Notes: generated by a model not told the origin, from the sequence alone. Shown: positions 140 through 63,227, counted from the first letter of the stretch. The stretch is 64,000 nucleotides of DNA from Candidatus Babeliales bacterium (GCA_963743635.1 CAVUQO010000002.1:320001-384000), one strand, 5' to 3'. A program made the numbers and translations.

Positions 140-565
140 CTATTGATTATCGTCTTGTTGCTCTTGCCATCGACGATAGCGGACTTCTTGTTTTTCTAAG
201 TCCTTCAGACATTTTTCACTTTGTGCAATTCTTTTTTCTATATCATGTACATGATTTGCATCCTCTTCAGAAAGAATGGCAGCTGCATGTTCTTGACGGT
301 ACTCTTCCCAACGGGCCCATTGCAGGAGATCTTGTGCTTGCATTTGAAAAGCTTCCTTGCACAATTTGTGCTCTGCGACTGGACGCCCTTCGGTTATGAG
401 AGGGGTCATCATTAAACCGCACACCGCAGTAAGATAACAGCATGCTTTTACTGCATTGCCGTAGGCATTCGTAGATGATTTAGTTTTCGCAGTTTCCATT
501 TGCATAGCGTGCATGTGTGAAGTGCAGAGCGCAAAGGCCATGAGGCCGATTAATAGTTTTTTCAT
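140..565 (-). CDS. Secreted orphan protein (signal peptide ending HMHA|MQ), coiled-coil C-terminus
   Basis: ORF with MKK-hydrophobic-AxA N-terminus; AGGA RBS upstream. Confidence 0.75.
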   Translation of the reverse strand: MKKLLIGLMAFALCTSHMHAMQMETAKTKSSTNAYGNAVKACCYLTAVCGLMMTPLITEGRPVAEHKLCKEAFQMQAQDLLQWARWEEYRQEHAAAILSEEDANHVHDIEKRIAQSEKCLKDLEKQEVRYRRWQEQQDDNQ

Positions 566-614
566 TGGGTATTCCTATAGTGAATTTATCACGCCATAGC
601 GAAGCGACGGCGGA

Positions 615-1139
615 TTAATTTTTTTGATCTTTATCAGTGTTGTGTTGCTTTTGTGCGGACCGGTTGCTTGCATCTAATAATGCCTGTGTGTATGGATCTA
701 ATAATGCATAAGATGCTTGAATCCGTTTTTCGACCGCGTCGCCATAGATATAGCGATCTGCTAACGCAACTGCATCATCGATGGTTGCATGCCCCTTATG
801 ATCGATTTGCTCGAAATGCTGGAGAGCTCTTAATTTAACGTCTTCAGGTAAGTATTGAATACCTCTACGCAACACATCCCATGGAGAAGATGCCGTGGCC
901 CCTTCCCTTGGCCCTCTTATTCCAGCCAATCTCTCACCGGTAAGGTCAAAATCACTTTCCCCTACTATTTGAGGACGCATGTCAGAATTAATGCCAGGCA
1001 CTTCTCTCAAAAGATATGGTTTGTCTGCATCATTGCCATTCTCCCCATCCTTACCAATATTTAGTGGATTACCACTTCCCGCAACCATGCACAATGGCAT
1101 CATGAGTGCTGCGATAAAGATTTTTCTTAGATTATTCAT
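615..1139 (-). CDS. Secreted orphan protein
   Basis: Signal-peptide-like N-terminus, co-oriented in tandem cluster. Confidence 0.7.
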   Translation of the reverse strand: MNNLRKIFIAALMMPLCMVAGSGNPLNIGKDGENGNDADKPYLLREVPGINSDMRPQIVGESDFDLTGERLAGIRGPREGATASSPWDVLRRGIQYLPEDVKLRALQHFEQIDHKGHATIDDAVALADRYIYGDAVEKRIQASYALLDPYTQALLDASNRSAQKQHNTDKDQKN

Positions 1140-1146
1140 GTGAGTC

Positions 1147-1623
1147 CTATTGGTTTGATGAAAAATAATTAATCCAGCTTTGTACGTAGGCTATGGTGCG
1201 CGTAGTAAGAGTGGGCGTTTCTTGAACGGGAACGCTTGGTGCTTTTGTGACATCATTGTTCGCTTGTTCCCACTGTCTCAAAGTTCCAGGATTCCAGCTG
1301 ATCAATTGGCGTGCAGTGTTGAAACTATCCTGAAATTTTAATTGCTCTCGTTGATAGATATTTCTTGCGAGAGCGTGACATCTTTCTTGTTCCTCTTCAC
1401 TCATATGCTGACTGGATTCGTTTTCGTTAACATCCAAGGGTTCAGGAGGAACCGCCATCTGGCGTGCTGTATTAAAACTCATCGATGCGGGAAGATGCCC
1501 AATTGCAACTCGTTCACCTTGCGCATTTGTGCGGAACATTACTACTGAACTGAGACCAGATCTATCCATTGCGTGCAGGTGATGCGCTGCTATGAGCAAT
1601 ATGGTACATAATAGTTTTTTCAT
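1147..1623 (-). CDS. Secreted orphan protein (HLHA|MD)
   Basis: Signal peptide; short internal repeat SFNTARQ x2. Confidence 0.75.
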   Translation of the reverse strand: MKKLLCTILLIAAHHLHAMDRSGLSSVVMFRTNAQGERVAIGHLPASMSFNTARQMAVPPEPLDVNENESSQHMSEEEQERCHALARNIYQREQLKFQDSFNTARQLISWNPGTLRQWEQANNDVTKAPSVPVQETPTLTTRTIAYVQSWINYFSSNQ

Positions 1624-1710
1624 ACGATTTCCTTCTCATATGGTGATTGATAATTCTTCTTTCGTTTGCCCTGAGTATTTCGAGCCGACAGCGAGAAATG
1701 TGTCGAAGGG

Positions 1711-2601
1711 TTACTCAATTGAACCATAGTGAGCCACGCGTTTATCAGCATTCGCTTCATGCCAAAATGCTGCGTAACGATCTTGAGCACCGGGTTTGCT
1801 TGGTGAAAAATGCCAGTATTCATTGTGATAATTAGTGAGTCCTGCGAGTGCAGCAGCCATTTGCAAATAGAGGCGGTTACGTTTTTGAGTATCGGAAATA
1901 TCTTCTGAATAGGTTGGCACTGATGGATTTGCTCCCCAAATCACGCCAAATTTCCCAAGATCAAGATACTCTTTTTTCTTTTCATTCCATAAACGAAAAT
2001 CGATTGCTGCTCCGGTAGAATGCACGGGCACATTATTCTTAACCGGTGAAACCCATTTTGATGTTTCAGCGTCTGCTTGTTCGTCTGTCATTCCCATATT
2101 GGCCGCCATAATTTCAGCCTTTTTGTTATTGAAGAGCATCTCTTGCGTTTTTAAATCGCGCAATCCTTCAAATACTTTAATGGAAACTTCCGCAGGTTCA
2201 TAGCCAAAATGGGGCGATAATGTATCGAGATTTGGAATCATTGCCGCTACGGATGCATACACCGTTTTACGTACTTTCGATGCACTTGGTAATCCAGAGT
2301 TGCATGCATCGCTTTCAAAGGGGGTTGCAGGATCCGGCATCATCGTAATGCGTGGATTGTGGATTTCTCGTACGTCTACGAGTGATTCATGATTTTCTAC
2401 TATGGGTATGCTTCTTACGTCAGGGTGGGCGATGGCCGGAGCTTCACCGCGTGCAAATGCAGCTTGTTGGCGTTTAATAATTTCCAAGGCAGGGTATTGC
2501 TCAAAAAGAGGTTGATATTTTTGGAATAGTTCCGGCCAAGACATTGCTAGTGCATCAGAGTGCGTTGCCATAACGAGTGCTAAAAGAGCTATTTTTTTCA
2601 T
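1711..2601 (-). CDS. Secreted D-Ala-D-Ala dipeptidase-like Zn peptidase (M15D/VanX family)
   Basis: Motifs EGLR, HSTGAAID, EYWHFS; start taken at MKKIALL (ORF track extends to 2625). Confidence 0.85.
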   Translation of the reverse strand: MKKIALLALVMATHSDALAMSWPELFQKYQPLFEQYPALEIIKRQQAAFARGEAPAIAHPDVRSIPIVENHESLVDVREIHNPRITMMPDPATPFESDACNSGLPSASKVRKTVYASVAAMIPNLDTLSPHFGYEPAEVSIKVFEGLRDLKTQEMLFNNKKAEIMAANMGMTDEQADAETSKWVSPVKNNVPVHSTGAAIDFRLWNEKKKEYLDLGKFGVIWGANPSVPTYSEDISDTQKRNRLYLQMAAALAGLTNYHNEYWHFSPSKPGAQDRYAAFWHEANADKRVAHYGSIE

Positions 2602-2665
2602 GGTTAATTCAGTTGTTCTTATCATAGTAATTCCTTATGTTTGGAGTTTTTCGTGGTTTTAATTG

Positions 2666-3427
2666 CTATCGATTTATGCCATGAAGGCGTAGAGTTTGAA
2701 TCATTCTTTGTTTTTGTTCTTCATTCCAGTCAGTGCTCTGCACAATATTGGTTTCGATAATCTGTTGCTCCCCATTTGAAAGCTCTGGAACCTCATGCAA
2801 CATCTCTTCCAGCAGCTCTGGATACGAAGCATGGTTGGTACGACATACACCTAAACGATGCACAAAATTTCCATGCCGCATTAAGGTGCGTATTATTGCA
2901 ATATCGCACCAATTGACTGCTGCCTGAAATGCATGTTCACTGACGGGATGTCCCGCCTCTAAAAGCACGTCTATTGTGTCGCTGATTTGTAATGGATCGC
3001 CATTATGCTTGCTGGCAGCAAATGCTGCATCTATTAGAAGATCTTTTTGCTCGCCGAAGCATATTTCAAGATCATAACGAGCGCCTGCCTTAAGCAACAC
3101 TCTTGCTACCTCTGCGTGAAAATTACGCACCGCAAGGCCAAGTGCCGTACTTCGAAAGCCAAAGGATTGATATGTTGCATCAACTGATGCATCGGCAATA
3201 ATCAACGCTTGCGTTATATCCGCATGGCCCAGATAGGCAGCCCTATGTAATGGTGTCCGACCATATGTATCTTTGGTATTAACTAAACTTGGAAATTGCC
3301 TGATGAAGTCATACACATCCCGCGTATTTGCATTGTGTGCCTCTATAAGATTATGCAAAGGTCCAGCGCATAGGTTGCCTGTACTGAGCATGAGAAGAAG
3401 CGTATATAGAGATTGTATTCCTTTCAT
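2666..3427 (-). CDS. Secreted ankyrin-repeat protein
   Basis: GRTPLHRAAYLGHADITQALI and TALGLAVRNFHAEVARVLLKAGA ankyrin consensus; signal peptide. Confidence 0.85.
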   Translation of the reverse strand: MKGIQSLYTLLLMLSTGNLCAGPLHNLIEAHNANTRDVYDFIRQFPSLVNTKDTYGRTPLHRAAYLGHADITQALIIADASVDATYQSFGFRSTALGLAVRNFHAEVARVLLKAGARYDLEICFGEQKDLLIDAAFAASKHNGDPLQISDTIDVLLEAGHPVSEHAFQAAVNWCDIAIIRTLMRHGNFVHRLGVCRTNHASYPELLEEMLHEVPELSNGEQQIIETNIVQSTDWNEEQKQRMIQTLRLHGINR

Positions 3428-3626
3428 ATGAATCTTTCAGGTAAAAAGTGATATTTTCTATCATTATAGTATAGGTAAAACGCCTTTAAGTATGCTAGCA
3501 ATGGACGAAAAAGTCCATTAAGCCTGCATTTCAGTGTGAGGTTAACTCTAGAAAAGGAGAGGGGGTTGTGATACTCTAAGGGATATAAAAGCCTATATTA
3601 ACAACCTATTTTAGGGGGCAACCCTG

Positions 3627-4211
3627 ATGAATTACACTAAATACTTAGCATTATCGTTAATTGCACTTTTAAGCTCGGCGCCGGTATCTGCTCGGCGGGG
3701 AGAATCTGCTGAAGAAAAAAAAGCTTCTCGAGAGAGACAGGCGAGCCATACGTCATTCTATAGTGCAGACCTGCGACACATTATCGAAAACGGAAGCAAC
3801 GGATTTTATGTTCACACTTTTGTTGCATCTCGCTCTTTTTCCTCTGATGAGCCGCGCGCTATGAGCAATAATAACGTTGCCAACGGGCAAAACACTCGCG
3901 CAGCGGCACGCAACGAATCTCGGCTCGTTCCTCGCATTATTCACCACTTTGTGGAATTAACTCCCCATCCTGTCACTGGTGACGTTCTTACGGTCGAGAC
4001 CAGCACGGTTGTTACCAGCAATGAAGGCAACATTGTCGTTGAACTTCCCGGTGTTTCCGATCCAGAAGAAGCAAAAACAATGATCGGTCATGAAATTATC
4101 CCACCGCGTGTTATCACTGCAAGAAGCGAAGACTGGATCCGTGCTCAAGAAATCATTGAGCTATTGGATAAACCGGCTGTTCAAATGCCAAAAATCGAAG
4201 ACGTAGATTAA
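3627..4211 (+). CDS. Secreted orphan protein ending MPKIEDVD
   Basis: Signal peptide (PVSA|R), AGGGGG RBS. Confidence 0.8.
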   Translation: MNYTKYLALSLIALLSSAPVSARRGESAEEKKASRERQASHTSFYSADLRHIIENGSNGFYVHTFVASRSFSSDEPRAMSNNNVANGQNTRAAARNESRLVPRIIHHFVELTPHPVTGDVLTVETSTVVTSNEGNIVVELPGVSDPEEAKTMIGHEIIPPRVITARSEDWIRAQEIIELLDKPAVQMPKIEDVD

Positions 4212-4243
4212 AAATTAGAATGGTAACCATTCAGGGGGGCACT

Positions 4244-5281
4244 ATGAAAAAATATATGAGATTTATGCTCAGCTTGATGCTGTGCGCAGGGTTTTTGCAG
4301 CCAACGTTGCAGGCAGTCCCATCCGAAACGTGCGCAAAATGGGTAGCGCGCGGTGCTACACTTATATACTGGAATTTTTTGATGGGCCCAGCATTTGATA
4401 AAGCACTTGGTGCGATGAATTTACGTGTCGCTCGCAGCCATATAGATGAGCGGGCGTGTGATTTACAAGACATCGCTCCCGAATCGTATGCTGAAATTCA
4501 AAATATTTTACGCCAGGAAGGGTTGCCTGGATTAGATGGATATACTATCAAAAAGGCACCTAAAAATTCATCCGGATGCGAATGGGCATATTTTGGGGGT
4601 AAAACTATCATTGCGCCATCGAATGCTTTTGTACCCCGTGACGAACATGAAGAGAGCTATGCATCATCTTCATCGGCCGCAGCGGTTCCTGTCGATAAAG
4701 GTAAGCGGTTTAAAATAGTTGATTGTGAAGAGGCTGCTGCAATATTATCCCATGAAATGGAACATGAACGCAGAAAACATATTGAAAAAAGAGTCTTGAT
4801 CTCAGCAGTAGTGCCCTTAATCGCTCATACAATAGGAAAAGCAATGGCGAGCCCTCAGGTTGCGGGTGCCGTTTACCCAAGCATAGGGCGATCATTATTG
4901 CGTATACCATACGCGCTTGCCATCGTTATGCCGGTCTATTGGTTAGATTTATGGTATTCAAGAAGAACTGAACGAGAAGCAGATGCGATTTTACAACGCA
5001 GTCCAAAGCTTGCCCAGAAGTTTAGTGAGTTTCTTAAAAAAGATTATGCTTCGGTTGATGGAAAATTCGAAGAATCTAAGAGCAGCGTGTGGGATAACGT
5101 TCATAATGGAAATCTCACGAATGTCGGCATTGTAGATAGAGTATTGGCTCCCAATTTGAGTAAGCCTCGTTATATCGCAGCGATCAAAGATATTCATGGC
5201 CTCACTCAGACTCATCCATGGTGCTCAGAGCGTATTGCATATTGTGAAAAATGGGCCAAGGAAAAAGATCAGTCGAAATAA
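4244..5281 (+). CDS. M48-family Zn metallopeptidase with signal peptide
   Basis: HEMEH zincin motif, SRRTEREAD third-ligand motif, THP motif. Confidence 0.85.
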   Translation: MKKYMRFMLSLMLCAGFLQPTLQAVPSETCAKWVARGATLIYWNFLMGPAFDKALGAMNLRVARSHIDERACDLQDIAPESYAEIQNILRQEGLPGLDGYTIKKAPKNSSGCEWAYFGGKTIIAPSNAFVPRDEHEESYASSSSAAAVPVDKGKRFKIVDCEEAAAILSHEMEHERRKHIEKRVLISAVVPLIAHTIGKAMASPQVAGAVYPSIGRSLLRIPYALAIVMPVYWLDLWYSRRTEREADAILQRSPKLAQKFSEFLKKDYASVDGKFEESKSSVWDNVHNGNLTNVGIVDRVLAPNLSKPRYIAAIKDIHGLTQTHPWCSERIAYCEKWAKEKDQSK

Positions 5282-5304
5282 TCATTGTTGTTATACAAAA
5301 AATG

Positions 5305-5333
5305 AAAACCCCTCAAATTTTGAGGGGTTTTTT
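5305..5333. terminator. Bidirectional intrinsic terminator
   Basis: aaaacccctcaa-attttgaggggtttt hairpin between convergent genes. Confidence 0.8.
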
Positions 5334-5340
5334 ATGGTGT

Positions 5341-5988
5341 TTACTTATGAACCGTAAATCGATCGGGGCAGATGATGCCGCCGGATATGATGAGTGCCAT
5401 TGCTTCTTGTCGGTTGAGTTGCGTGATGGAGATTTTACTCTCAGGAACGATGATGAAAAAGCCGGTGGTGGGGTTGGGAGTTGTCGGTACGAAGACATTG
5501 AAGTATTTGATGTTGGTGTGTGGCGTGAGCGCCTGAGGCATTTCACCGCTCAGAAAACCGATGCTGTAAACGCCTTCGAGCGGAAATTCGAGCATGACTA
5601 CTTGTTTGAAGGTGACCTTATCTTGCGATGAGAATGCACCAACCAATTGTTTGATGCCGCCATAAATAGGGCGCACAAGCGGAAGTCTGAGAATGAACGA
5701 TTCGGCATAATCTATTAAAGTTCGCAAAACAAACACTTGCATGATGGCGCCAATGGCGAGAATGATCGCAATCGCGAGAAGAATTTCATAATGAGGAATT
5801 GTGCTTAAAACCGGTATTTCAAGCGTTTGTAATGGCGCAAGCCACTTTTTTATTTGCCCAAAAGAGAAGTTGAAAATAACGATGGTCAGAATGACGGGTA
5901 AGATCGTGAATAAACCGCTCAGGAATAATGACCAAATCGTGCGAAGAACGCGCATAATGGTTTCATGGATAGGAGTTAGCATACTCAT
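5341..5988 (-). CDS. DUF502 family membrane protein
   Basis: LPLVRPIYGGIKQ and VFVPTTPNPTTGF signatures. Confidence 0.9.
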   Translation of the reverse strand: MSMLTPIHETIMRVLRTIWSLFLSGLFTILPVILTIVIFNFSFGQIKKWLAPLQTLEIPVLSTIPHYEILLAIAIILAIGAIMQVFVLRTLIDYAESFILRLPLVRPIYGGIKQLVGAFSSQDKVTFKQVVMLEFPLEGVYSIGFLSGEMPQALTPHTNIKYFNVFVPTTPNPTTGFFIIVPESKISITQLNRQEAMALIISGGIICPDRFTVHK

Positions 5989-5990
5989 TC

Positions 5991-7328
5991 CTATTGGTTA
6001 AGGACTTTGGAAAGTTTTTGTGATAATGCCGTGCCGATAAAGGTAGCGTGTTCAAGTGTATCATCTTCAATCATGATGCGTAAGAGATTTTCAGTTCCCG
6101 AGTATCTAATGACGCATCTACCGGCATGTAGTTGATTTTCATAGTCACGAATGATGGTCGAAAACGGGGGAGTTGAGAGATCCTTTTTTTCCAATACGGG
6201 GACATTGATGAGTATTTGTGGATAGGGGCTGAAGGTTTTCATAGCCCAATTGCCATTCAGGCATAAGGTTTCGAGTAATCTGAGGGCAATGAAAATGCCA
6301 TCGCCGGTATTAAGATAGTCCCGCACGATAATGTGTCCTGATTGTTCGCCGCCGAGCAGCAAATTATGCGTTTCTAAAGCCAGTGCAACGTGCTTATCAC
6401 CCACATTGGTGCGCAATAATGTTTTTCCGCGTTGTGCGAGAAAATGAGCAAAGCCATGATTACTCATGCTGGTACCGACTACTTGAGGTGTATCTTGGTA
6501 GCGCGGATGATCGAGCAACAATGCGAGGATGGTGTCTCCATTGTGGATGGTGCCATCTGCACCGACGGCTACCACGCGATCTCCATCGCCATCAAACGCA
6601 AATCCCGCGTCAGCGCGATGTCCGACGACTGCCTGCGCCAACAGTTCGGGATGCAATGCGCCGCATCCTTGGTTGATATTGATGCCGTTTGGCGTACCGT
6701 GCAGCATGTGCGTGGTTGCGCCGAGTTGCTGAAAGATGGTTTGTGCGACGGTATGCGTTGCGCCCTGTGCACAATCAAGTACGATCGTTTTTCCCGCAAG
6801 CACATTATGGGGAAAAAGACTCATGATATGCGCGATGTAATCATGCGCTGCAGTGTGATAGAAAAAGCGGGAACCAAGATTGTTATAATCAATCGCAGGT
6901 GGCGTTGCATCATAAAAAAATTGCGTAATCATCTGCTCATCAGCTTCTGAAATTTTGCCATGTTTGCGAATGATTTTGATGCCATTATCGTGATACGGAT
7001 TATGTGATGCGGATATGATAATGCCGCAATCAATATCATCTTGAATGTGCGCAAGCAGACAGACTGCAGGCGTTGGGAGCGTGTGCGCATCACGTAATGT
7101 AACGGGATGTTGCAGCAAACCGCTTTCAAGCGCGCTTAACACCCATGAACATGAAATGCGTGTATCATGCGCAATGATGATGCGCGGGCGATGCGCGTGC
7201 GTTTGCAATGCCCAGCGTGCAATAGCTGCACCGAGTCGTGGTAAATCGTGGAGGGTGAATGGCATGTGGCCGACGCGATTGCGAATCCCATCGGTGCCAA
7301 ATAAATTGCATATCGGTGTGTTTTGCAT
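5991..7328 (-). CDS. glmM: Phosphoglucosamine mutase
   Basis: FGTDGIR, ISASHNP, FDGDGDR, GGEQSGH, RYSGTE; downstream of cdaA-cdaR. Confidence 0.93.
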   Translation of the reverse strand: MQNTPICNLFGTDGIRNRVGHMPFTLHDLPRLGAAIARWALQTHAHRPRIIIAHDTRISCSWVLSALESGLLQHPVTLRDAHTLPTPAVCLLAHIQDDIDCGIIISASHNPYHDNGIKIIRKHGKISEADEQMITQFFYDATPPAIDYNNLGSRFFYHTAAHDYIAHIMSLFPHNVLAGKTIVLDCAQGATHTVAQTIFQQLGATTHMLHGTPNGININQGCGALHPELLAQAVVGHRADAGFAFDGDGDRVVAVGADGTIHNGDTILALLLDHPRYQDTPQVVGTSMSNHGFAHFLAQRGKTLLRTNVGDKHVALALETHNLLLGGEQSGHIIVRDYLNTGDGIFIALRLLETLCLNGNWAMKTFSPYPQILINVPVLEKKDLSTPPFSTIIRDYENQLHAGRCVIRYSGTENLLRIMIEDDTLEHATFIGTALSQKLSKVLNQ

Positions 7329-7427
7329 GTCTGATCTGAAGCCCTTATTAGAGTTGTTATGTTATGCACTAAAGGATACATAATTTAGAATAATCTTGAA
7401 ATGAATGGTTTAAATAATTGCATAGAA

Positions 7428-8021
7428 TTATTTGTTACATTTTAGTGAAGGCTTTTCCAAGATACTCAAAATGCTCTCTGATTGTTGTATCCATTGCTGA
7501 GCCATTTCTATCGTTAGTTCATGAACTACTATTGGATTATAATTCGCTGCATATTCATCAAAACTAAAATAATTTTCAGATGGTTCAGGGTCTGAAAAAA
7601 GCCATGGGTAGGTGTAAGATATTTCTAAATAAATTTTGTTATTCCTTGTATAGAGCCATGTTTGTATTTTTGAAGGTGAGGACCATAGCCATAAAGGTTT
7701 ATAATCAATGTCATTATTATTGTTTTGTTCATCAAAGCTAAATGACAGGCTTGCCTGACCTAGCTCTATAGAAGATGGGAGTATCTGTTTGTTAATAAGA
7801 GCATGAGTTAAGATGTTTTTTAACATTTCGAAACACAATCCTACAGCATCTTCAAAGAGTGTTGTTTCGATACCACTATTACAGTAGATTATCGTAACAA
7901 TATCATAGATATGTAATCGTTCTGTTGGTGGATAATAATAGTTATCCTTGTGAGGAAATTCCGGAACCAAAATATCGATGTAGGCATTGTCATTTATTGT
8001 GAATCGAGTGATTGAGATCAT
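7428..8021 (-). CDS. Putative immunity protein of upstream Hint-toxin
   Basis: AT-rich, acidic/aromatic orphan; ATGA overlap with toxin stop. Confidence 0.6.
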   Translation of the reverse strand: MISITRFTINDNAYIDILVPEFPHKDNYYYPPTERLHIYDIVTIIYCNSGIETTLFEDAVGLCFEMLKNILTHALINKQILPSSIELGQASLSFSFDEQNNNNDIDYKPLWLWSSPSKIQTWLYTRNNKIYLEISYTYPWLFSDPEPSENYFSFDEYAANYNPIVVHELTIEMAQQWIQQSESILSILEKPSLKCNK

Positions 8022-8965: not shown

Positions 8966-8967
8966 AA

Positions 8968-10237: not shown

Positions 10238-10270
10238 AGTGTTCCTTTTATAAGGTTATTATTTCCGTTA

Positions 10271-10504: not shown

Positions 10505-11530
<1,026 letters not shown>

Positions 11531-14690: not shown

Positions 14691-15047
14691 TTATTTCCTT
14701 TCTTCGATCGTATGAGGATCTTGTGGGTTATCGATGAAGACCCAATTGTTTTCTGTTGAAAGAGGCTTAATGTGCGTGCGTATGTAGTGTATGAGTTGGA
14801 ACTTTTTTAGCAAGTTTATGCATGCCTGAGTGCGTTTTGCACTTTCCTGTTTGGTTGAATTTTGCGTTGTGAGCTTTTCCATTGCATGAAGATCGTAGGA
14901 TGCGCAAAAAACTAATGCGATGACGAGCGCGGTATAGCAAGACTTGCTAAGTGATGCACATTTATCCCTTATGTCCCGCGTTATGCCCCTGCGGGCTACT
15001 AGGGACGAACGGGAGTGGATATTTGTTAAAACATTAGGCTTTTTCAT
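14691..15047 (-). CDS. Secreted orphan protein (DLHA|ME) with in-frame REP-like insert in N-terminus
   Basis: Signal h-region TALVIALVFCA; REP copy at 14966-15014. Confidence 0.65.
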   Translation of the reverse strand: MKKPNVLTNIHSRSSLVARRGITRDIRDKCASLSKSCYTALVIALVFCASYDLHAMEKLTTQNSTKQESAKRTQACINLLKKFQLIHYIRTHIKPLSTENNWVFIDNPQDPHTIEERK

Positions 15048-16028: not shown

Positions 16029-16268
16029 TCATTTTTTTTCACAACCATTTTTTTGATTAGGCGACTTAAAGAGTGGATTGAGCGTTGTGTTGGTGGCTGG
16101 TTCACCGTGCGTTTCTCTTTTTGCGTTTTTATCATGAAGCGCCAAGACTTCTTCCAGAGTAATTTCGTCTATTTGGCTGTTGGATTGCTTATTGTTGGGT
16201 TGCATTGCGTGCAGCGTGAAAGAAGAAACGAGAAGAGTTAGGACAAGGTTATTCCATATAATATTCAT
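16029..16268 (-). CDS. Small secreted orphan (TLHA|MQ)
   Basis: Start taken at MNIIWNN (ORF track extends to 16316); signal peptide. Confidence 0.6.
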   Translation of the reverse strand: MNIIWNNLVLTLLVSSFTLHAMQPNNKQSNSQIDEITLEEVLALHDKNAKRETHGEPATNTTLNPLFKSPNQKNGCEKK

Positions 16269-16350
16269 GAAAATCCTTTGGGCTCGCAAGGAGCATTTGG
16301 TATTGAAACGTCGCATTGTGTATATCGTGGTTTGTTAAAAAAGGCAACCA

Positions 16351-16763: not shown

Positions 16764-17069
16764 TTATTCTTTTGCGGGTTTAGGAGTTTTGGGCGTTCTG
16801 GGAGTAATGGGAGGGCGTGGGGAATTTGGATTAGAAGAACTACCATTGGAAGGGATAGAGATGGCAGCTTTTATTTTCAGGATAGTTTTGGTGTTGATAT
16901 TTTCTTCTTCGCAGAAGCTTTTATTGAGGGTTTCTTTTAATTCCTCGATGCGGCGTGGCGAAAAGGGAACGACTTCAGGGTCTGACGAAGGGGAATCTTG
17001 CATACCCATCAGCGAGGCAGTGCTTTGCGCAATAACCATGCATACTAGATAATAAATATGACGTTTCAT
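16764..17069 (-). CDS. Small secreted orphan with S/T-P-rich basic tail
   Basis: GGGAG RBS, signal peptide, SPRPPITPRTPKTPK. Confidence 0.7.
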   Translation of the reverse strand: MKRHIYYLVCMVIAQSTASLMGMQDSPSSDPEVVPFSPRRIEELKETLNKSFCEEENINTKTILKIKAAISIPSNGSSSNPNSPRPPITPRTPKTPKPAKE

Positions 17070-28572: not shown

Positions 28573-29403
28573 TTACTTTGAATTTTTTGTAATTTCGTTT
28601 TCTACCAAGTTCTGAGCAGCTTGTTCTAGTTTTTTCGCAAGCCATTGAGACATCTGTCGTCCATCCGTAGTTTCTTCCAATTGGCTTTTTATCGCTAGAT
28701 AACGCTTGTTGAGATGAGAGCATTCTTGAATCAAGTCGCTATCAAGAAAAAATTGTGATTCGCCGAGCAATAAGTCCACCCTTTTAGGAAAATTAGTTGG
28801 CCTTGCATAAGCGGAGAGGTTTGCAGAATTTTTGCTGAATCTACTCACTTTGGTTTGCCAATCTAACATGAGCGCTTTCTCATATATGATATCGCCACAA
28901 GAAGGCTGTTTGTCTAGTTTAACATTCATTACAGCTTGGCATTCGCGAAAATCTCGTAATGCCATCCTGTTAGCGTATGCGCTAGTCATATCAGGATCGT
29001 TATAGGTTATATTGTAGTTGCAAAAATGTTTGGACGCGCCTGGGTTAAATTCATTTGAGTTAGCAATCAATGCCTTAGCGGAAGAGGTTAGGTGATTTGC
29101 AATTGTTTTTGACCTCTTGTCCCCCCCTGGAGTTGCTTCTAAGCGTTCTTTTATTGCGCCATAGTCATCAGACAACGTTTTGTATGTAGTAAGCGTGCGA
29201 CTATAGAAGTCAGCATCGCCACACCATGGGAGAGGTGCTTCAAGAGCGAGGCAGCGTGCCTCCTGCTCGAGATCAGTTACTAAATTGCTGAATTCAGCAT
29301 TATCCATAGTAGGTTTGTTATTCATAGCAGATAGACTATCTACTGCAAAAATGCTGCATAAGACAACAATTCTAAAAAAATCGTTAGCATGTCTGTTTTT
29401 CAT
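28573..29403 (-). CDS. Secreted orphan (SLSA|MN) with duplicated helical motif
   Basis: Signal peptide; paralogous C-terminus to 25669-26118. Confidence 0.78.
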   Translation of the reverse strand: MKNRHANDFFRIVVLCSIFAVDSLSAMNNKPTMDNAEFSNLVTDLEQEARCLALEAPLPWCGDADFYSRTLTTYKTLSDDYGAIKERLEATPGGDKRSKTIANHLTSSAKALIANSNEFNPGASKHFCNYNITYNDPDMTSAYANRMALRDFRECQAVMNVKLDKQPSCGDIIYEKALMLDWQTKVSRFSKNSANLSAYARPTNFPKRVDLLLGESQFFLDSDLIQECSHLNKRYLAIKSQLEETTDGRQMSQWLAKKLEQAAQNLVENEITKNSK

Positions 29404-29669: not shown

Positions 29670-30140
29670 TTATATATTTGCAAAAAAGCAGCATCGGCGT
29701 TGATAGGCTTGTTCTACTCGTCGTCGTTCGAAAAGATTAGTAGTTGGAGCATGATTCTTTCTTCGTTCTTCAATGATAGCAGCTGTGAGGGGCACAATGC
29801 CTGGGCATACTGGGCCAAATAATAGGTGTTGGTTTTCTCCGGGCAGCTGTGAGTTTGGAGAGTGTTTGTTTTGTTTACTGCGTTCTTGTTCCATGAATAG
29901 ATAGTAGTAGACTATAGCCTCGTGATAATAAATTCTCTCATACGCTTGCTTGTTACATTGGCAAGGGCTCACGGGAGCAGGAAGAGTCTCGTCCGGTTTT
30001 ATTGTCGAGAACCACTCTTTATTCGCCACTCTTAAAAGATCAATATCATTAGTGGAGAGCCTTTCCATTGCACATAGCGTATGTGTGATAATCAGAGAGG
30101 AAATTAATAATAATAAAGATCGATTCATATAGGTGTTCAT
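29670..30140 (-). CDS. Secreted orphan (TLCA|ME), C-terminal RRCCFF
   Basis: Signal peptide. Confidence 0.7.
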   Translation of the reverse strand: MNTYMNRSLLLLISSLIITHTLCAMERLSTNDIDLLRVANKEWFSTIKPDETLPAPVSPCQCNKQAYERIYYHEAIVYYYLFMEQERSKQNKHSPNSQLPGENQHLLFGPVCPGIVPLTAAIIEERRKNHAPTTNLFERRRVEQAYQRRCCFFANI

Positions 30141-55600: not shown

Positions 55601-56294
55601 ACTTGAATAAAGAGATATTTAATATTTTTGGGTCCCCCGGGGTCCGGCAAGGGCTCTATTATCAGGGCTTTGTGTCAAGAATTTCGGGTGGACTCAACTT
55701 TCAACCGGAAATATATGTAGAAAGCATATAGCTGAGCAAACACAAGTTGGCAAAGCAATAGATTTTGCAATAAAATCTGGTAAACTAATATCAGATGAGC
55801 TTGTTACGAGTATGATAGAGCAATCGTTACAGGAGTGCCTGGAGAGTTCTTCAGTGATTATTCTTGATGGATACCCCCGAACGGTGGCTCAGGCTCGGCA
55901 ATTGAGCCAATTGCTCGAAACAAAATTTAAGAATATAAAGCTCAGATTGGTTCGATTTAACGTTCCTGATAAGCTCCTTGTTGAGCGTCTTTCGGCTCGT
56001 TATATCTGTAAAAACCAGGATTGTCAGGCGGTATATTCGCTTCTTTCTGGATCACAGCAGGCTCCTAAACATGACCTGGTGTGTGATAGATGCGGTCAGC
56101 CCCTTTACAGAAGGGAAGATGACCAGCCATCAGCAGTCAAAGAACGACTTAAAATGTATCATGCATATGAGCAAGATCTATTGAATTTTTACCGTACTGA
56201 AAAGCCGGAAGAAATAACAGATTTAGAGGCTGATAAGCCATTAATAGAAGTATTTGAAGATTTTAAAAAACGTGTGATGACCAAAAACGTATGA
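55597..56294 (+). CDS. adk: Adenylate kinase (frameshifted)
   Basis: GPPGSGKG, LDGYPRT, Zn-lid Cys motifs, REDD. Confidence 0.9.
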
Positions 56295-57065
56295 TTACCA
56301 TAAAGAACAAAGCATCCCTGCGTAAAATGGAGTGAAGCTGGTAGGTTACTGGCAGAAATCATGAAAGACCTTCAAGGTCGCCTTTGTTCCGGTGTGAGTA
56401 CGCTGGCTCTTGACGCGTGGATTGATCAAGAAATGACCAAAAAAGGCCTTAAGTCGAAGACAAAGGGTTTTATGACATACCGACATGTAAGTTGCATTTC
56501 GGTGAATGATGAGGTTGTTCATGGCGTTCCCTCCGCAGGTAAAATACTAAAAGATGGGGATGTCGTAAAAGTTGATATATGTGCTTCATGGGAAGGTTAC
56601 TGTGCCGATATGGCTCGTGCCTATTTTATTGGGACGGTTTCCAGAGGAAGTGCGAAATTGGCATTAGTTGCTCAGGCGGCTTTGATAAAGGAATTGAAAA
56701 GGCGCGCGAAGGTAATCGACTTTCAGATATTTCGGCAGCAATTCAAGAAGAAGTTGAAAGGCATGGATTTGGCGTTGTGCGTGATTTTGCAGGACATGGT
56801 ATTGGAAAACAAATGCATGAAGATCCTGAAGTATTGAATTATGGCAAACCTGGTAAGGGGCCCGTCTTGCGAGCCGGGATGACATTTGCTATTGAGCCAA
56901 TGATTACCATGGGTAAATATAATGTGTATGTACCGAAGATGGTTGGACGGTAAAAACCAAGGATAAAAGTTTGGCGGCACACGTTGAAGATACTATTGCA
57001 ATAACTCAGGGTGACCCAAAAATTTTAACACGAGAATGCAATGAAGAGGCTATAAAACCGCATGA
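56291..57065 (+). CDS. map: Type I methionine aminopeptidase (frameshifted; end approximate)
   Basis: [33 protein letters not shown]. Confidence 0.9.
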
Positions 57066-57295
57066 AAGATACCATAAACAAAAAGAAGAAGTAATAAAAG
57101 TTGATGGCATTGTAAAAGAAACATTGCCAAATGCAATGTTTCGCGTTGAAATTGAAGGCGGGCATGTAGTTTTGGGCATGTTTCTGGTAAAATGCGCATG
57201 CATTATATAAAAATTTTGCCAGGTGATCGAGTGGCGTTGGAATTTTCGCCGTATGATTTAAACGGGGAAGAATTGTTTTGCGATATAAAAATTAA
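57062..57295 (+). CDS. infA: Translation initiation factor IF-1 (frameshifted)
   Basis: [26 protein letters not shown]. Confidence 0.9.
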
Positions 57296-57330
57296 TTAAT
57301 AATGCAGGTATTACTTAAAGGAAAATACAG

Positions 57331-57447
57331 ATGAAAGTGAGAACATCAGTTAAAAAAATATGTGAATAATGTCGTATTATTAAACGTAAAGGCGTTGTTC
57401 GTGTTATTTGTAAAAGAAATGCACGTCATAAACAACGTCAAGGTTAG
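57331..57447 (+). CDS. rpmJ: 50S ribosomal protein L36 (apparent in-frame TAA, likely error)
   Basis: MKVRTSVKKIC..CRIIKRKG...HKQRQG. Confidence 0.9.
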
Positions 57448-57465
57448 GTTGAAAGTAAGGATTAT

Positions 57466-57859
57466 ATGGCAAGAATCGAAGGTGTTAATTTACCAGCGAA
57501 TAAACGAATTGAGTATGCGCTTGACATATCTTTTTGGTATTGGTCTTAAGACATCGCAAGATATTCTCAATAAATTAAAAATTGATTTCAATAAGCGTGT
57601 AAAAGATCTTACTGATGCAGAAGTTGCGGCAATATTTCAAAAGAAGTTTCCAGTAACTATATTACTGAAGGTGAATTGCGCAAAGAAATTACGCTGAATA
57701 TTAAGCGATTGCAAGAAATTGGTAGTTACCGTGGATTGCGTCATAAAAAGGGATTGCCGGTTCGTGGTCAACGTACAAAAACAAATGCGCGTACTCGTAA
57801 AGGTCCACGTAAAGCTGGTTCAGCATATCGCATTGAAGAAAAAAGTAACTAAGAAATAA
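57466..57859 (+). CDS. rpsM: 30S ribosomal protein S13 (frameshifted)
   Basis: [33 protein letters not shown]. Confidence 0.92.
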
Positions 57860-57890
57860 TTGTAAGATAGTTAACTGAGGTATTGTCAGA

Positions 57891-58272
57891 ATGGCATAAA
57901 AAAAAAGACGAAAAAAATTAAAAGACAGGTGATTCGGCGGTTGCGCATATTAAATCTACCTTTAATAATACGCTTGGTTTCGATCACCACACTAGAAGGT
58001 GATGTGTTATTGCGAGATAGTTCAGGCAAACTTGGATTTAAAGGAGCCGTAAAGGTACTCCATTTGCGGCATCGCAAATTGGCACAATACTTGCAAAAGA
58101 AATGGATGCAATGGGAATTCAGAATGTTGAAGTAAATATGCAAGGTCCTGGTTCCGGTCGTGATTCAGTTGTTCGATCATTGCAAGCATCTGGCATTGAA
58201 TGTTTCAGTTTTGCGTGATGTAACCCGTTTCCTCATAATGGTTGTCGTGCTCCTAAAAAACGTCGCGTATAA
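57891..58272 (+). CDS. rpsK: 30S ribosomal protein S11 (frameshifted)
   Basis: STFNNT, GPGSGR, PHNGCRAPKKRRV. Confidence 0.92.
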
Positions 58273-58310
58273 GTATATTGCGTATTAGAACCATGTTAAT
58301 ATAAGGTTAT

Positions 58311-58943
58311 ATGGAAAAAAAATCAACACGTTCAGATGAATCACAGCGAAAGAAGATCTCCACGAGGCAATGATGCTTAGCAAGAAAGCACACGCGGCGG
58401 TGAAGCTACGGTGAACGCAAGAACGACGTCTCGAAACGTTCAAAAAAATTGTCTGAATATGGCAAACAGCTTAGTAGAAAAGCAAAAAGTAAAAGAAATG
58501 TACGGATTGCGTGAAAAACAATTTAAACGTTTCTTTAGTATTGCGATTAAAAGTCGTGAAGGGGTACCGGGAGAAAATCTTATTGAGTTGCTTGAGCGAC
58601 GATTAGATAATATTATTTATCGTATTAAAGTTGGCAACAACCCGAACCCAAGCGCGTCAAATGATTACTCATGGACATGTTATGGTCAATGGTAGAAAAG
58701 TATATTCTCCATCATTTTTGGTTTCAGTAAATGATGAAGTTTCACTTGATCCAAAAGTTACTGAAAAAAAGGTATTTTTGGAGCAAGTAGTTGATAAGAG
58801 ACTTAACATTGGTATCAAAGTTCCTGAATGGCTTGAATTGAATAAGAAAGATCGCAAAGGTACAAGTATTACGCAATCCGGTTCGTTCTGATATTCAAGT
58901 GCCAATTGAAGAACACTTGATTGTTGAGTTGTATTCTAAGTAA
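58311..58943 (+). CDS. rpsD: 30S ribosomal protein S4 (frameshifted)
   Basis: [34 protein letters not shown]. Confidence 0.9.
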
Positions 58944-58997
58944 TAGTTTTTGTTTAGTGTGTATACGGTGATTTACTTTATGTGCCACGGAGGTTAG

Positions 58998-60054
58998 ATG
59001 GAAAAAAAGAATATAGACCATTAACTATTCCAAAATTAAATTGGAATAAGAAAGAATTAACTCATACTTATGGTGAATTGATTGCTCAACCTTTAGAGCC
59101 AGGTTTTGGTATTACTCTTGGTAATGCATTACGTCGTATTTTATATGCGGGCGTTGAAGGTTCTGCGGTAACATCAGTGATTATTAAAGGAGTAAATAAT
59201 GAATTTTCTTCATTGCCTGGTGTTGAAGAAGATGCAATGCAACTTATTCTTAATATTAAAGAATATTGTTGTTCGTAATAAAGACGGGAAACCGGGCAAA
59301 ATGCATTTGCATGTAAAAGGCGAAGCAGTTGCAAAGGTTGCAGATATTAAGGCAGATGAGCATCTTGAATTGGTTAATAAAGATCATGTGCATTGCGCAT
59401 GTTTCTGAAGATGGTGAACTTGATATTGAATTCTTTGTTGAACAGGTCGTGGTTATAAGCCGCGCAATGGCCAGTAGATAAATCGTTGCAAGAAGATGGT
59501 CGTATTTATATTGATGCGATGTTTTCTCCAATCCGCAAAGTAATGTTTGATGTTGAAAAAACTCGTGTTGGTAAAGATATCGATTATGATAAATTGACAT
59601 TCCGGATTCATACTGATGGTTCAGAAAATCCGCTTGATGTTTTGCATTATGCAGTTTCAGTACTTAAGAACACAACTAGAACATTTCTTGGCAAGCGCAG
59701 AAATTCCATTTAATGAAATTTCAGCTATCACCAGAAGAAGAGCAAGAGGGCGAACCGGTAGAATCTAGAACAATTGGGCCTCAAAGGTGTTTCAGCTGAT
59801 CTTTTACTTAAAGCCAATTGAAGAACTTGAACTTTCAGTGCGAGCACATAATTGTTTGATCAATGCTGGTATTAAACGTATCATTGATTTAGTTAACTTA
59901 AGTGAAGATGAAGCGCTTAAAATTAAGAATTTTGGCCGTAAATCATTGAGTGAAGTTAAAGAAAGCATGAAGGCATTTGGTCTTTCTTTTGGTATGAATA
60001 TCAAAGAAAATGAAGCTGAAGAAAGCGCTTGAACTAAGTGAAAGAAATGAATAG
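58998..60054 (+). CDS. rpoA: RNA polymerase alpha subunit (frameshifted; ends approximate)
   Basis: [39 protein letters not shown]. Confidence 0.92.
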
Positions 60055-60760: not shown

Positions 60761-60821
60761 ATTGGATCCGTAAGCTTTTAATGTAAGCGATAATTATGTA
60801 CAAAACAAAAAGGAATTCACT

Positions 60822-61160
60822 ATGAATGATTGGGGTTGGATTTATGTTATATGCGCCGGTATCGTTGAGATAATTTATGCAGCGGCAATGCCCAAAACGA
60901 ACGGCTTTACGCGGTTAGGCCCAACGTGTTTTTGCATAATCTTCATTTCGCTCAGTATGTACTTACTTTCGCTTGCAACTAAAACATTACCGATTGGCAC
61001 AGCCTATGCGGTTTGGGTAGGCATAGGGTCTCTGGGCACCGCGGCTTATGGCATTATGTATCTCGGTGAGGATGATAGTCCATTAAGGATTCTTTGTTTT
61101 ATATTCATTCTTTGCGGGATAATTGGTCTTAAAATATTATCAACAAGCTCTAAATCCTAG
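60822..61160 (+). CDS. SMR-family transporter (SugE/Gdx-like)
   Basis: AGIVE membrane Glu, LPIGTAYAVWVGIG; 4 TM helices. Confidence 0.9.
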   Translation: MNDWGWIYVICAGIVEIIYAAAMPKTNGFTRLGPTCFCIIFISLSMYLLSLATKTLPIGTAYAVWVGIGSLGTAAYGIMYLGEDDSPLRILCFIFILCGIIGLKILSTSSKS

Positions 61161-61288
61161 GTTTTGTGAGTCAAATTTAGATTCTGTCCTAAACTTCAAA
61201 AAGATTTTAAATTTCCCTTTCTTCAAGCTCAAATAATAATAACAACAATTGAATGAAGAATTCAGTGCACAACATCGATAAGAACTTA

Positions 61289-61324
61289 CGGGCTCCTCAA
61301 TAAAAAGAGGGGCCCGAATCTTTT
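61289..61324. terminator. Hairpin/terminator; a second, interrupted copy lies at 63249-63497
   Basis: cgggctcctc-aataaaaa-gaggggcccg-aatctttt. Confidence 0.7.
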
Positions 61325-61418
61325 ATAAACGATTGTGTTCTACGGATGTTTTTTGCCATCATAGGGTAAAGTAAGGTATGAACATAGGGTTCATATCAAT
61401 TATTAAAAAGGAGAGATA

Positions 61419-63227
61419 ATGGATAGAAATAAAATCATAGCGGGTGCAGTGCTCGCGATTGGCGTTATAGTATGGCGCGTGGGGGCGATGCAGCAGGGCA
61501 ACAATCAAATCGAGATAGAGCCCAATGATGGACCTGTAATACGCATGAACATCGATAGAGCATGCTTATCTGGCACGATTAAGAATCTCTATGATACTCT
61601 ACAAAATGAAGCTGGGGAGTTCAACGAGCCAATGCCAGTGTCGGTTTCAACTGCTGATCTGAATGCCGTATTTATCACCGAAGAACCGCAGATTTTGGCA
61701 GCACATGCGGCTTTTAATGATCGCACTCTCGCTGCGATCAGCGCATTGCCAGAAGAAGTGCGGAAAGAAAGAGCGAGGCGCGCTGCGAGTCTCATGGCTC
61801 AGACGCCGTACAATGCAGAGTTATTAAACCGCACTATGAAACGCTTTCAGGTTGCAGTCTATTTAGATATTCCGGAATTGTATGAGCGTGATGCGAAAAT
61901 AATTGCGGATATGTTGATCTCTGATGTGGGTCTTGCGGCATTGAGCGGTAATGCCGCGATTTTAAATGAATTTACGGTGGCATTAGAGACGGCAGTTGCC
62001 AACTATATTCCGGAACTCTGGCTCGAGGCGTGCACGTTAAGAGGGCATACTAATTGGGTTATATCAGCAGCATTTTCACCCGATGGCACTCTGGTGGTGA
62101 CGGTATCTATGGATAACACTGCAAAGATATGGAATGCTGCAACTGGTGCAATGGTCAGAGATCTTGATACTGGTGAGGTTAATTCAGCTCTTAAATCAGC
62201 AGCATTTTCACCCGATGGCACTCTGGTGGTGACGTTATCTGGTGATAACACTGCAAAGATATGGAATGCTGCAACTGGTGCAATGGTCAGAAATCTTGTG
62301 GGGCATACTGGGCTGGTTAATTCAGCAGTGTTTTCACCCGATGGCACTCTGGTGGTGACGGCATCTTGGGATCGCACTGCAAAGATATGGAATGCTGCAA
62401 CTGGTGCAATGGTCAGAGATCTTGTGGGGCATACTAATTGGGTTATATCAGCAGCATTTTCACCCGATGGCACACGGGTGGTGACGGCATCTGATGATAA
62501 CACTGCAAAGATATGGAATGCTGCAACTGGTGCAATGGTCAGAGATCTTGTGGGGCATACTGCTTATGTTCAGTCAGCAAAATTTTCACCCGATGGCACT
62601 AAGGTGGTTACGGCATCTGTTGATCGCACTGCAAAGATATGGAATGCGGCAACTGGTGCAATGGTCAGAGATCTTGTGGGGCATACTGAAGTGGTTTCTT
62701 CAGCAGTATTTTCACCCGATGGCACTCAGGTGGTGACGGCATCTTATGATAAGACTGCAAAGATATGGAATGCAGCAACTGGCGCAATGGTCAGAAATCT
62801 TGTGGGGCATACTGATGTGGTTTGTTCAGCAGTATTTTCACCCGATGGCAGACGGGTGGTGACGGCGTCTGCTGATAACACTGCAAAGATATGGAATGCG
62901 GCGACTGGTGCATTGGTATGGAATCTTGTGGGGCATACTGGAGCGGTTTTTTCAGCAGTATTTTCACCCGATGGCACTCAGGTGGTGACGGCATCTTATG
63001 ATAAGACTGCGAAGATATGGCAATTATTGCCAAGCTCGTTGCCCGGCGTGAATGATTTTGATGCGACCTTATTCGCTCATTTACTATTCTGGGCGCAAAA
63101 AAATAAACAAAAAATAACCGATACTTCGTGGGCGCCGAAAGTTGTGCATGCCATTAAATGGCATATGATGAGGCCTGCCGATAAGCAGTTGCTGCAAGGA
63201 TGGATTCGGGAAGCTATGCAGCACTAA
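61419..63227 (+). CDS. Secreted Skp1/BTB-like + 8x WD40 repeat protein
   Basis: Signal RVGA|MQ; SGTIKNL, EPMPV and AVYLDIPEL..AKIIADML resemble Skp1; GH...FSPDG..VVTAS.D.TAKIW repeats. Confidence 0.88.
   Translation: MDRNKIIAGAVLAIGVIVWRVGAMQQGNNQIEIEPNDGPVIRMNIDRACLSGTIKNLYDTLQNEAGEFNEPMPVSVSTADLNAVFITEEPQILAAHAAFNDRTLAAISALPEEVRKERARRAASLMAQTPYNAELLNRTMKRFQVAVYLDIPELYERDAKIIADMLISDVGLAALSGNAAILNEFTVALETAVANYIPELWLEACTLRGHTNWVISAAFSPDGTLVVTVSMDNTAKIWNAATGAMVRDLDTGEVNSALKSAAFSPDGTLVVTLSGDNTAKIWNAATGAMVRNLVGHTGLVNSAVFSPDGTLVVTASWDRTAKIWNAATGAMVRDLVGHTNWVISAAFSPDGTRVVTASDDNTAKIWNAATGAMVRDLVGHTAYVQSAKFSPDGTKVVTASVDRTAKIWNAATGAMVRDLVGHTEVVSSAVFSPDGTQVVTASYDKTAKIWNAATGAMVRNLVGHTDVVCSAVFSPDGRRVVTASADNTAKIWNAATGALVWNLVGHTGAVFSAVFSPDGTQVVTASYDKTAKIWQLLPSSLPGVNDFDATLFAHLLFWAQKNKQKITDTSWAPKVVHAIKWHMMRPADKQLLQGWIREAMQH
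62043..63020 (+). repeat. Eight tandem ~126-bp near-identical WD40-coding repeats
   Basis: gggcatact starts at 62043, 62301, 62427, 62553, 62679, 62805, 62931; unit 2 carries an indel. Confidence 0.95.

Follow-up and report, generated by a model that had tools for sequence, protein, structure and literature searches.

In eukaryotes, proteins whose N-terminus reads Met-Asp, Met-Glu, Met-Asn or Met-Gln are the substrates of the acetyltransferase NatB and retain their methionine. In the PEXEL pathway, a cut within RxL|xE/Q/D in the secretory pathway exposes an N-terminus with Glu, Gln or Asp in second place, and this mature end directs export into the host cell, while in the surface lipoprotein export signal (LES) of Bacteroidetes acidic residues stand just after the +1 Cys. 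PEXEL export in Plasmodium is the subject of PMC10653839; the effectors of powdery mildews bear a Y/F/WxC motif directly after the signal peptide (PMC2886064) and the Q-rule of Bacteroidetes places Gln at the +1 position of signal peptidase I substrates, where it is cyclised to pyroglutamate (PMC5837995, PMC10653852). Here we report a residue rule of related kind, Met at +1 followed preferentially by Asp, Glu, Asn or Gln at +2, directly after the predicted signal peptides (SPs) of secreted proteins encoded in a stretch of 64,000 nucleotides of Candidatus Babeliales bacterium (GCA_963743635.1 CAVUQO010000002.1:320001-384000; G000:C2:320001-384000 in our numbering, with G000 standing for the genome and C2 for the contig), hereafter the window, and throughout the genome to which it belongs. 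The observation is robust and genome-wide; the mechanism that we discuss for it, a sorting tag on the mature N-terminus, is proposed from sequence.

Genome G000 comprises 1.45 Mb in three contigs, with a G+C content of about 42% and a completeness of 85%. Its elongation factor EF-G shares 74% identity with that of a metagenome-assembled genome (MAG) named 'Candidatus Babeliales bacterium' and 54-62% with the other 79 matches listed, and 58 related genomes fall into 14 families of a single order, which together place G000 in the Babeliales (Dependentiae/TM6), widespread obligate parasites of protists. We called 1500 genes with our own gene caller, based on codon log-odds, covering 84.5% of the genome, and searched them with our own SP finder instead of SignalP, in which the cleavage site is picked from the h-region and the (-3,-1) rule only and the +1 residue is ignored. 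The strict set, which also requires a net positive n-region, contains 382 SPs; its cleavage sites are the predictions of a crude (-3,-1) rule, and it retains some false SPs, among them a transketolase/DXS-like protein and glycosyltransferases with N-terminal anchors.

We found Met at the blind +1 position of 86/382 strict SPs (23%), compared with a Met content of 2.35% in the proteome (binomial P 1e-56), with Gly (10%) and Ala (9%) as the runners-up. The initial annotation had pointed to Met directly after the predicted cut as a property of secreted proteins; the predicted site does adjoin the Met, and the frequency lies about tenfold above background, so the pattern is a true enrichment. When each BLAST family is reduced to one representative, Met remains at +1 in 70 of the 311 (P 2e-46). 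At the other positions from -6 to +7 its frequency ranges from 0 to 7.9%, the -3 and -1 positions being barred from Met by the site rule. The residue that follows is likewise biased, since Asp, Glu, Asn or Gln occupies +2 in 58/86 M-type SPs, those with Met at +1, versus 73/296 other SPs (odds ratio 6.3, P 1e-12), and the hydrophobic residues Leu, Ile, Phe, Tyr and Trp occupy it in 5/86 versus 68/296. With no fixed position imposed, [AGS]M[DENQ] was located close to where the h-region ends in 100/382 SPs, compared with 30 for the variant with Leu in place of Met and at most 16 for each of nine other residues. When the site choice is made aware of Met, 146 proteins, some of them false, constitute what we term the M class, with Asp (25), Glu (25), Gln (24) and Asn (15) at +2 accounting for 89/146. 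Overall, one of these four residues follows the +1 Met in about 61-67% of cases, and around a third of the M class has another residue there.

Next, we examined which type of signal peptide the M class carries. The features are those of Sec-dependent substrates of signal peptidase I, with Ala (68%), Ser (18%) or Gly (14%) at -1, Ala, Leu, Val or Ile at -3 in 75%, and a median SP length of 21 (n = 146). The SPs with and without Met are alike in their -3/-1 logos and in a frequent His at -2, and only +1 and +2 differ. Over mature positions 3-12 the mean hydropathy is -1.0 in M proteins versus -0.38 in non-M proteins, and Gln makes up 10.6% versus 4.8%. The junction does not resemble a lipobox, as its +1 residue is Met and Cys occurs at the blind +1 of 5/382 strict SPs. 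Nor does it resemble a type IV prepilin site, because the hydrophobic segment precedes the cut, with Gly at -1 in 20/146 and Glu at +5 in 11/146, or a Tat signal, RR being present in the n-region of 1/146.

The comparison with the described systems reveals a likeness and a difference in each case. As with the Q-rule, the pattern is a lineage-specific, proteome-wide residue rule at the signal peptidase I cut of ordinary Sec SPs; unlike it, the residue is Met rather than Gln, which lies outside the six commonest residues at +1, the +2 residue is also specified (Glu, Asp, Gln or Asn), and the rule covers a subclass with effector-like cargo, about 23-38% of SPs, whereas the Q-rule covers most substrates. 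We know of no modifying enzyme for the Met rule. PEXEL also relies on proteolysis to expose an N-terminus with an acidic or amide second residue, but it is a eukaryotic system in which an aspartic protease of the endoplasmic reticulum, plasmepsin V, cuts downstream of RxL, whereas here the organism is bacterial, the predicted enzyme is signal peptidase I, an A-x-A rule holds at -3 to -1 without RxL, and Met is fixed. The NatB substrates share the same dipeptide set, which is found in 58/86 SPs with blind sites, 89/146 with Met-aware sites and 8/9 junctions of the window, with the difference that theirs arises from translation initiation and is acetylated co-translationally, while here it would arise by proteolysis in the bacterium. 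Similarly to the LES and Y/F/WxC, a short, low-information motif at the mature start singles out some of the Sec cargo for onward transport, although the residues, organisms and machineries are others, and here there is neither +1 Cys lipidation nor a conserved Cys. The words 'methionine', 'TM6' and 'Dependentiae' are absent from the main text of the Q-rule paper PMC5837995, and no published account of Met at +1 as a rule, whether for Dependentiae or for other organisms, came up in a search that included term searches of PMC6561590, PMC5837995 and PMC4776705, with subscription-only papers and supplements lying outside its coverage.

The window encodes ribosomal and other housekeeping genes with many small SP-bearing open reading frames (ORFs) scattered between them. 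In nine of its ORFs the initial annotation had read a Met directly after the predicted cut, eight of them with Asp, Glu, Asn or Gln at +2; all nine junctions were confirmed by direct translation, and the count of 8/9 is correct. All nine have a positively charged n-region, a hydrophobic core, Ala (eight) or Gly (one) at -1 and an aliphatic or small residue at -3, and two of the nine are weaker SP calls. The automatic pipeline identified 24 SP-like ORFs in the window, 15 of them strict and four of the strict with Met, and recovered 6/9 of the ORFs; those at 140-565, 14691-15047 and 29670-30140 were missed, and their SP junctions were read by eye from the translation.

Seven of the nine are orphan ORFs on the minus strand. 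The ORF at 140..565 (141 aa) has its SP at 565-506, a predicted cut at HMHA|MQ and the Met codon at 505-503; one metagenome variant carries changes at 506, 509 and 515 and leaves the Met codon unaltered. The ORF at 1147..1623 (158 aa), a strict SP protein with an SP at 1623-1570, a predicted cut at HLHA|MD and the Met codon at 1569-1567, is preceded by GAAGGA, which resembles a Shine-Dalgarno (SD) sequence, and gave no match in a Pfam scan. Another strict SP protein is encoded at 16764..17069 (101 aa; SP 17069-17004, predicted cut SLMG|MQ, Met codon 17003-17001), with the SD-like GGGGAG upstream of its start. The ORF at 28573..29403 (276 aa; SP 29403-29326, predicted cut SLSA|MN, Met codon 29325-29323) has a single homologue, partial and 92% identical, among 5.8 billion proteins searched, and that at 29670..30140 (156 aa) has its SP at 30140-30069, a predicted cut at TLCA|ME and the Met codon at 30068-30066. 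The small ORF at 16029..16316 is a loose SP call with a predicted cut at TLHA|MQ and the Met codon at 16205-16203; its start is uncertain, the initial annotation having placed it at 16268 and the longest ATG start lying at 16316, and a charged n-region is obtained only from the start further upstream. The second weaker call, the small orphan ORF at 14691..15047 (minus strand, 118 aa), has a presequence of 55 residues, a predicted cut at DLHA|ME and the Met codon at 14882-14880, and no alternative ATG, GTG or TTG start was found when its presequence was searched.

Two of the nine belong to known families. A D-Ala-D-Ala dipeptidase-like protein of the Peptidase_M15 family (PF01427; 1711..2601, minus strand, 296 aa) has its SP at 2601-2545, a predicted cut at DALA|MS and the Met codon at 2544-2542, and is the only member in the window without Asp, Glu, Asn or Gln at +2, having Ser instead. 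Its closest homologues (76-77% identity) read A|LSQ rather than A|MS, so its Met is probably incidental. In a cluster of further M15 homologues (P0037, P0042, P0045, P0050-P0052, P0064, P0077 and similar) the junction reads VFA|MNWNE, with Met replaced by Ile or Ser in a few; some of these proteins are labelled Chlamydiae or Parachlamydiales by their source, which indicates that Met at +1 with Asn behind it is shared by another protist-associated lineage, for this one protein at least. The second, a WD40-repeat protein with eight repeats (61419..63227, plus strand, 602 aa), has its SP at 61419-61487, a predicted cut at RVGA|MQ and the Met codon at 61488-61490. It belongs to a family of 14 paralogues, all of which (14/14) are M-class despite their divergence, and a 55%-identical relative from another metagenome retains WRMGA|MQ with both flanks changed.

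We then investigated which proteins carry the motif. In G000, 127 strict SP proteins from the window and from C3:1-400,000 were scanned against Pfam, with the M label assigned by a looser rule that includes at least three visibly false M calls. The M proteins comprise all WD40 or WD-like proteins (6/6), one zf-C2H2 protein, one STAND NTPase, 8/11 GNAT acetyltransferases (one of them a weak match), 3/5 M48 peptidases, 1/2 Sel1 proteins, the M15 peptidase and 31 proteins without a family. Among the non-M proteins are the secretin, OmpA, BamD, an outer-membrane protein barrel, 3/3 Big_13 and 3/4 thioredoxin-domain proteins, several glycosyltransferase-like proteins and 38 proteins without a family. 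The scan was replicated on 114 SP proteins of the relatives G017, G010 and G028, in which Ank (6/6), LRR (3/3) and WD40 (2/3) proteins are M, as are PPDK_N, GH1 and one AAA protein, and in which M23, C11 (2), SpoIID, PLD, PEBP, GT17, HIT and TPR (2) proteins are non-M, as are one each of GNAT, RING, lactonase-like propeller and methyltransferase. In the pooled data, proteins with eukaryote-like interaction domains number 21 M and 8 non-M and those with other domains 17 M and 40 non-M (Fisher P 2e-4, for classes drawn post hoc and with non-independent paralogues counted). The class split, obtained with our own SP finder, thus agrees with the initial annotation in that the motif occurs on eukaryote-like and orphan secreted proteins and not on housekeeping proteins of the envelope; Ig-like surface proteins are without it as well. 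M-class proteins have few homologues, forming 16 best-hit pairs in 11 relatives (about 2 Mb), mostly from two repeat-domain families, and non-M SP proteins form 64, of which 60 link non-M to non-M. The M-class genes are modestly clustered, with 69 adjacent M-M pairs versus 55 +/- 4.6 after shuffling. The predicted carriers make up a separate accessory class, fast-evolving and spread over more than 100 unrelated families. We also observe at least 11 GNAT acetyltransferases with SPs in G000:C3:1-400000 (L123:1538-6429, L118:9340-10509), eight of them with an A|M junction; so many secreted acetyltransferases are unusual, and they may target host proteins.

In the relatives, sampled at 119-220 kb each, we counted how many strict SPs carry [AGS]M[DENQ]. 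The motif is frequent in G017 (24/52) and G010 (13/27), both of family f1 and with mostly Glu at +2, and is found in G028 (family f11; 9/35), G061 (8/43) and, again within f1, G009 (4/31) and G014 (4/28). It is rare in G047 (f1; 1/35), G058 (f6; 1/35) and G057 (f12; 1/33, with Met at +1 in six), and its counts are 0/12 in G020 (f3), 0/3 in G021 (f4), and 0/23 and 0/17 in the two outgroup controls, a Pseudoduganella and an Acidobacteriaceae genome. Since all 200-kb bins of G000 with at least 14 SPs lie at 17-34%, the low counts in relatives reflect real differences. Non-homologous proteins in further genera and families of Babeliales follow the predicted rule, which is weak in some of these groups and absent from the two outgroup controls. 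In the Acidobacteriaceae control (G060, Acidobacteriaceae bacterium KBS 146; L175-L184) we observe Gln at the predicted +1 of 10/17 SPs, a small sample seen through a crude predictor, which would be a Q-rule-like pattern outside Bacteroidetes.

To our knowledge, Dependentiae have no recognised effector-injection system. In G000, at its 85% completeness, the VirB4 (type IV secretion), FHIPEP (type III secretion) and TssC (type VI secretion) families gave no match, and we detected two GspE/PilB-like ATPases, two GspF/PilC-like proteins and one secretin; with no marker of those three systems and with Gsp-like genes and a secretin present, a Sec-dependent two-step route is the only recognised one. 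Among the five genomes tested, two secretins are found in 5/5 and two GspE-like ATPases in 4/5, including G047, in which the motif count is 1/35. A type II system with two gspD genes is described as core to TM6 (PMC4776705), and SPs are reported on 44% of the coding sequences of one cultivated member of Dependentiae (PMC6561590). Two tandem lepB genes for signal peptidase I lie at G000:C3:523052-525004 (L082:436-2388) and encode proteins of 332 and 312 aa, both of which match TIGR02227 above the cut-off and have the boxes SGSM, KR.IG.PGD and GDNR..S.DSR intact. Of the relatives, G009, G010, G013 and G019 have two lepB copies and others, among them G017 and G028, one; we rejected the lepB duplication as the cause of the rule, as copy number shows no correlation with its strength.

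We also inspected the C-termini of the M class and found no common motif beyond a subset that resembles CaaX boxes, the eukaryotic prenylation signals exploited by effectors of other intracellular bacteria. With a CaaX-like pattern that was written post hoc, after the ends CTIS, CSIL, CIIS and CSVQ had been seen, 8/225 Met-bearing SP proteins match versus 5/1275 other genes (P 1.5e-4), the eight belonging to four families; a plain count of Cys at -4 was not significant (7/146 M versus 35/1354). The ends on M-class genes of G000 are CTIS, CSIL, CIIS, CSVQ, CSLQ and CTIQ, and in the relatives CaaX-like ends are found on M-class SP proteins of G017 (three) and G014 (one). Such an enrichment on M-class SP proteins fits a destination in the host cytosol. 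In the window, the ORF at 16351-16680 (minus strand) encodes an SP protein with the C-terminus CIIL.

Several explanations that leave aside any function of the exposed N-terminus can be weighed against the DNA sequence around the junctions. The initial annotation had itself raised the case that Met serves as an internal translation start, which would give a cytoplasmic isoform, or would make the SP a mis-annotated 5' extension, and the +1 Met codon is indeed an in-frame ATG. An SD-like motif precedes 75% of the 382 SP starts, with a clear G peak at -9, but only 2/160 of the +1 Met codons (1.25%), a lower rate than that of other internal Mets (8.5% of 1878). An SD sequence at the upstream ATG with nearly none at the Met indicates that the upstream ATG is the start and that the presequence is translated, and the upstream segments are complete in n/h/c architecture and conserved at the protein level between paralogues; we rejected this explanation on the SD test and give it next to no credence. 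A motif acting at the DNA level was also rejected, because the Ala codon at -1 shows no bias in its third base (A32, C20, G25, T21), from which we conclude that selection operates at the protein level. An artefact of paralogy was rejected in turn: when the mature parts are clustered by BLAST, 117 of the resulting 311 families have an M member, 109 being purely M and eight mixed, and the enrichment persists with one representative of each. Near-identical SP-coding DNA (87-100% over 27-75 nt) heads proteins with BLAST-unrelated mature parts, for example a 287-aa and a 151-aa protein, in 28 M-M, 19 M-non-M and three non-M-non-M pairs across different mature families, which suggests conserved 5' modules with putatively hypervariable or swapped bodies. 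This sharing would suit a neutral by-product of gene birth, in which a reusable promoter-plus-SP module was joined to the start codon of a cytoplasmic-type gene, acquired or duplicated, and the Met is a decaying fossil of that start, as would the youth or lineage specificity of the M class, its many cytoplasm-type domains (GNAT, WD40, zf-C2H2, STAND), the fact that families are mostly all-M or all-non-M, and the absence of Met from the 76-77% identical relatives of the M15 peptidase. However, a fossil start does not account for Met being placed sharply at +1 rather than scattered around the site, or for the absence of fossil SD sequences, which are rarer there than at ordinary internal Mets. 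Asp, Glu, Asn or Gln follows in 61-67% of cases versus 59/309 (19%) after the native start Met of non-SP proteins, which ties the bias specifically to the Met after the cut; moreover, unrelated proteins bear Met-[E/D/Q/N] in more than one family of the order, and the Met is kept in the 55%-identical WD40 relative and in all 14 diverged paralogues, and we consider this origin unlikely.

The remaining explanations assign a role to the exposed residues or to the enzyme that exposes them. A general preference of signal peptidase I, such as a P1' pocket favouring Met, would require no sorting meaning and is in keeping with the tandem lepB genes, both with their catalytic boxes, and with a motif that abuts the scissile bond, but the conserved envelope proteins of G000 use non-Met sites, the -3/-1 pattern is the same in both classes and lepB copy number does not follow the rule, with one gene each in G017 and G028, which makes it quite improbable. 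On the host side, a delivered Met-[D/E/N/Q] end could mimic a native N-terminus that is resistant to methionine aminopeptidase, carries no Arg/N-degron and is of the NatB class, so that effectors would be stabilised and might be acetylated. The four +2 residues favoured here match the NatB set exactly and are not favoured after native starts, hydrophobic +2 residues, which would form a Met-hydrophobic degron, are depleted, the carriers are eukaryote-like or orphan, and their enriched CaaX-like ends point to the host cytosol; listeriolysin O, a Sec-secreted protein, is reportedly degraded by the host N-end rule pathway. Against this, Ala, Ser and Gly, the best +1 residues for signal peptidase I, already evade the Arg/N-degron pathway, which makes Met superfluous for that purpose; the main targets of NatB are chains still emerging from the ribosome; all eukaryotes possess NatB and N-degron pathways, whereas the rule is nearly absent from G047 and G058; and G058 has CaaX-ended SP proteins without Met. 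We regard a host-side role as rather doubtful, though still a real candidate. As the most likely mechanism we rank first, tentatively, a bacterial-side sorting tag for a step after Sec export. The SP itself is of the usual Sec kind, with a canonical A-x-A site and its true start at the upstream ATG; signal peptidase I would cut before the Met, and the exposed Met-[E/D/Q/N] with the roughly ten polar, Gln-rich residues that follow would constitute a selected tag on the mature protein. Once Sec export is complete, this tag would set effector cargo apart from the proteins that reside in the periplasm and outer membrane, acting as a linear signal for the following outward step, either across the outer membrane through a type II/type IV-pilus-like apparatus or later. 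We favour a sorting tag because more than 100 unrelated cargos need a common mark and share no other motif that we found, because the patchy distribution suits a lineage-specific reader better than a universal host pathway, and because the cleaved PEXEL N-terminus (x-E/Q/D) offers a precedent for the logic, which the post-Cys export signal of Bacteroidetes lipoproteins follows as well.

Several observations weigh against a sorting tag. We identified no candidate receptor or reader, and the core apparatus does not track the rule, since secretin and GspE-like copy number shows no correlation with it in the five genomes and was rejected as its cause. Type II secretion takes folded substrates without a linear signal, and the tag is low in information, comprising two residues and a polarity, with about a third of the M class having another +2 residue, at cleavage sites predicted by our own crude rule. 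Furthermore, the strong ankyrin proteins of G000 (3/3) lack the Met, and G058 has three CaaX-like-ended SP proteins without it, indicating that proteins may reach the host untagged. The sorting and host-side readings are not mutually exclusive, and the interpretation given in the initial annotation is partly supported, in that the data can accommodate both of its proposals, an N-terminus of NatB/N-degron type and a signal that sorts for a second export step.

Beyond the junctions, the first 20 kb of the window (1-20000) are found, identical or nearly so, in metagenome assemblies that at least two studies obtained from peat and soil, which indicates that the organism or a very close strain recurs in such habitats; the matching contigs are mostly of the same strain, and the only variation near a cleavage site is that at 506-515. 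In the ribosomal-protein/secY/adk/map/rpoA region (53800-59600), in which G+C falls to 0.38, a number of essential genes are represented by short ORFs or by two that overlap, such as the secY-like pair at 54580-55170 and 55037-55600, the map-like pair at 56361-56837 and 56579-56953, and short rpsD-like and rpoA-like pieces; these may be due to assembly indels or to real frameshifts.

Taken further, Met-[E/D/Q/N] with its short polar stretch could be a linear host-delivery tag of Dependentiae, perhaps doubling as a NatB-class N-terminus in the host, and as such the first sequence signal known to split Sec-dependent effectors from resident envelope proteins in a diderm without type III, IV or VI secretion, a possibility that we advance with reserve. 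If true, the effector repertoire of a whole uncultivated phylum would become readable from genomes. The rule, in that it sets an accessory, eukaryote-like part of the secretome apart from a housekeeping part, would serve as an immediate effector predictor for the phylum, would provide a two-residue handle for work on export and stability in cultivable amoeba systems, and would be a second example, after the Q-rule, of lineage-wide selection on the first residue after the signal peptide.

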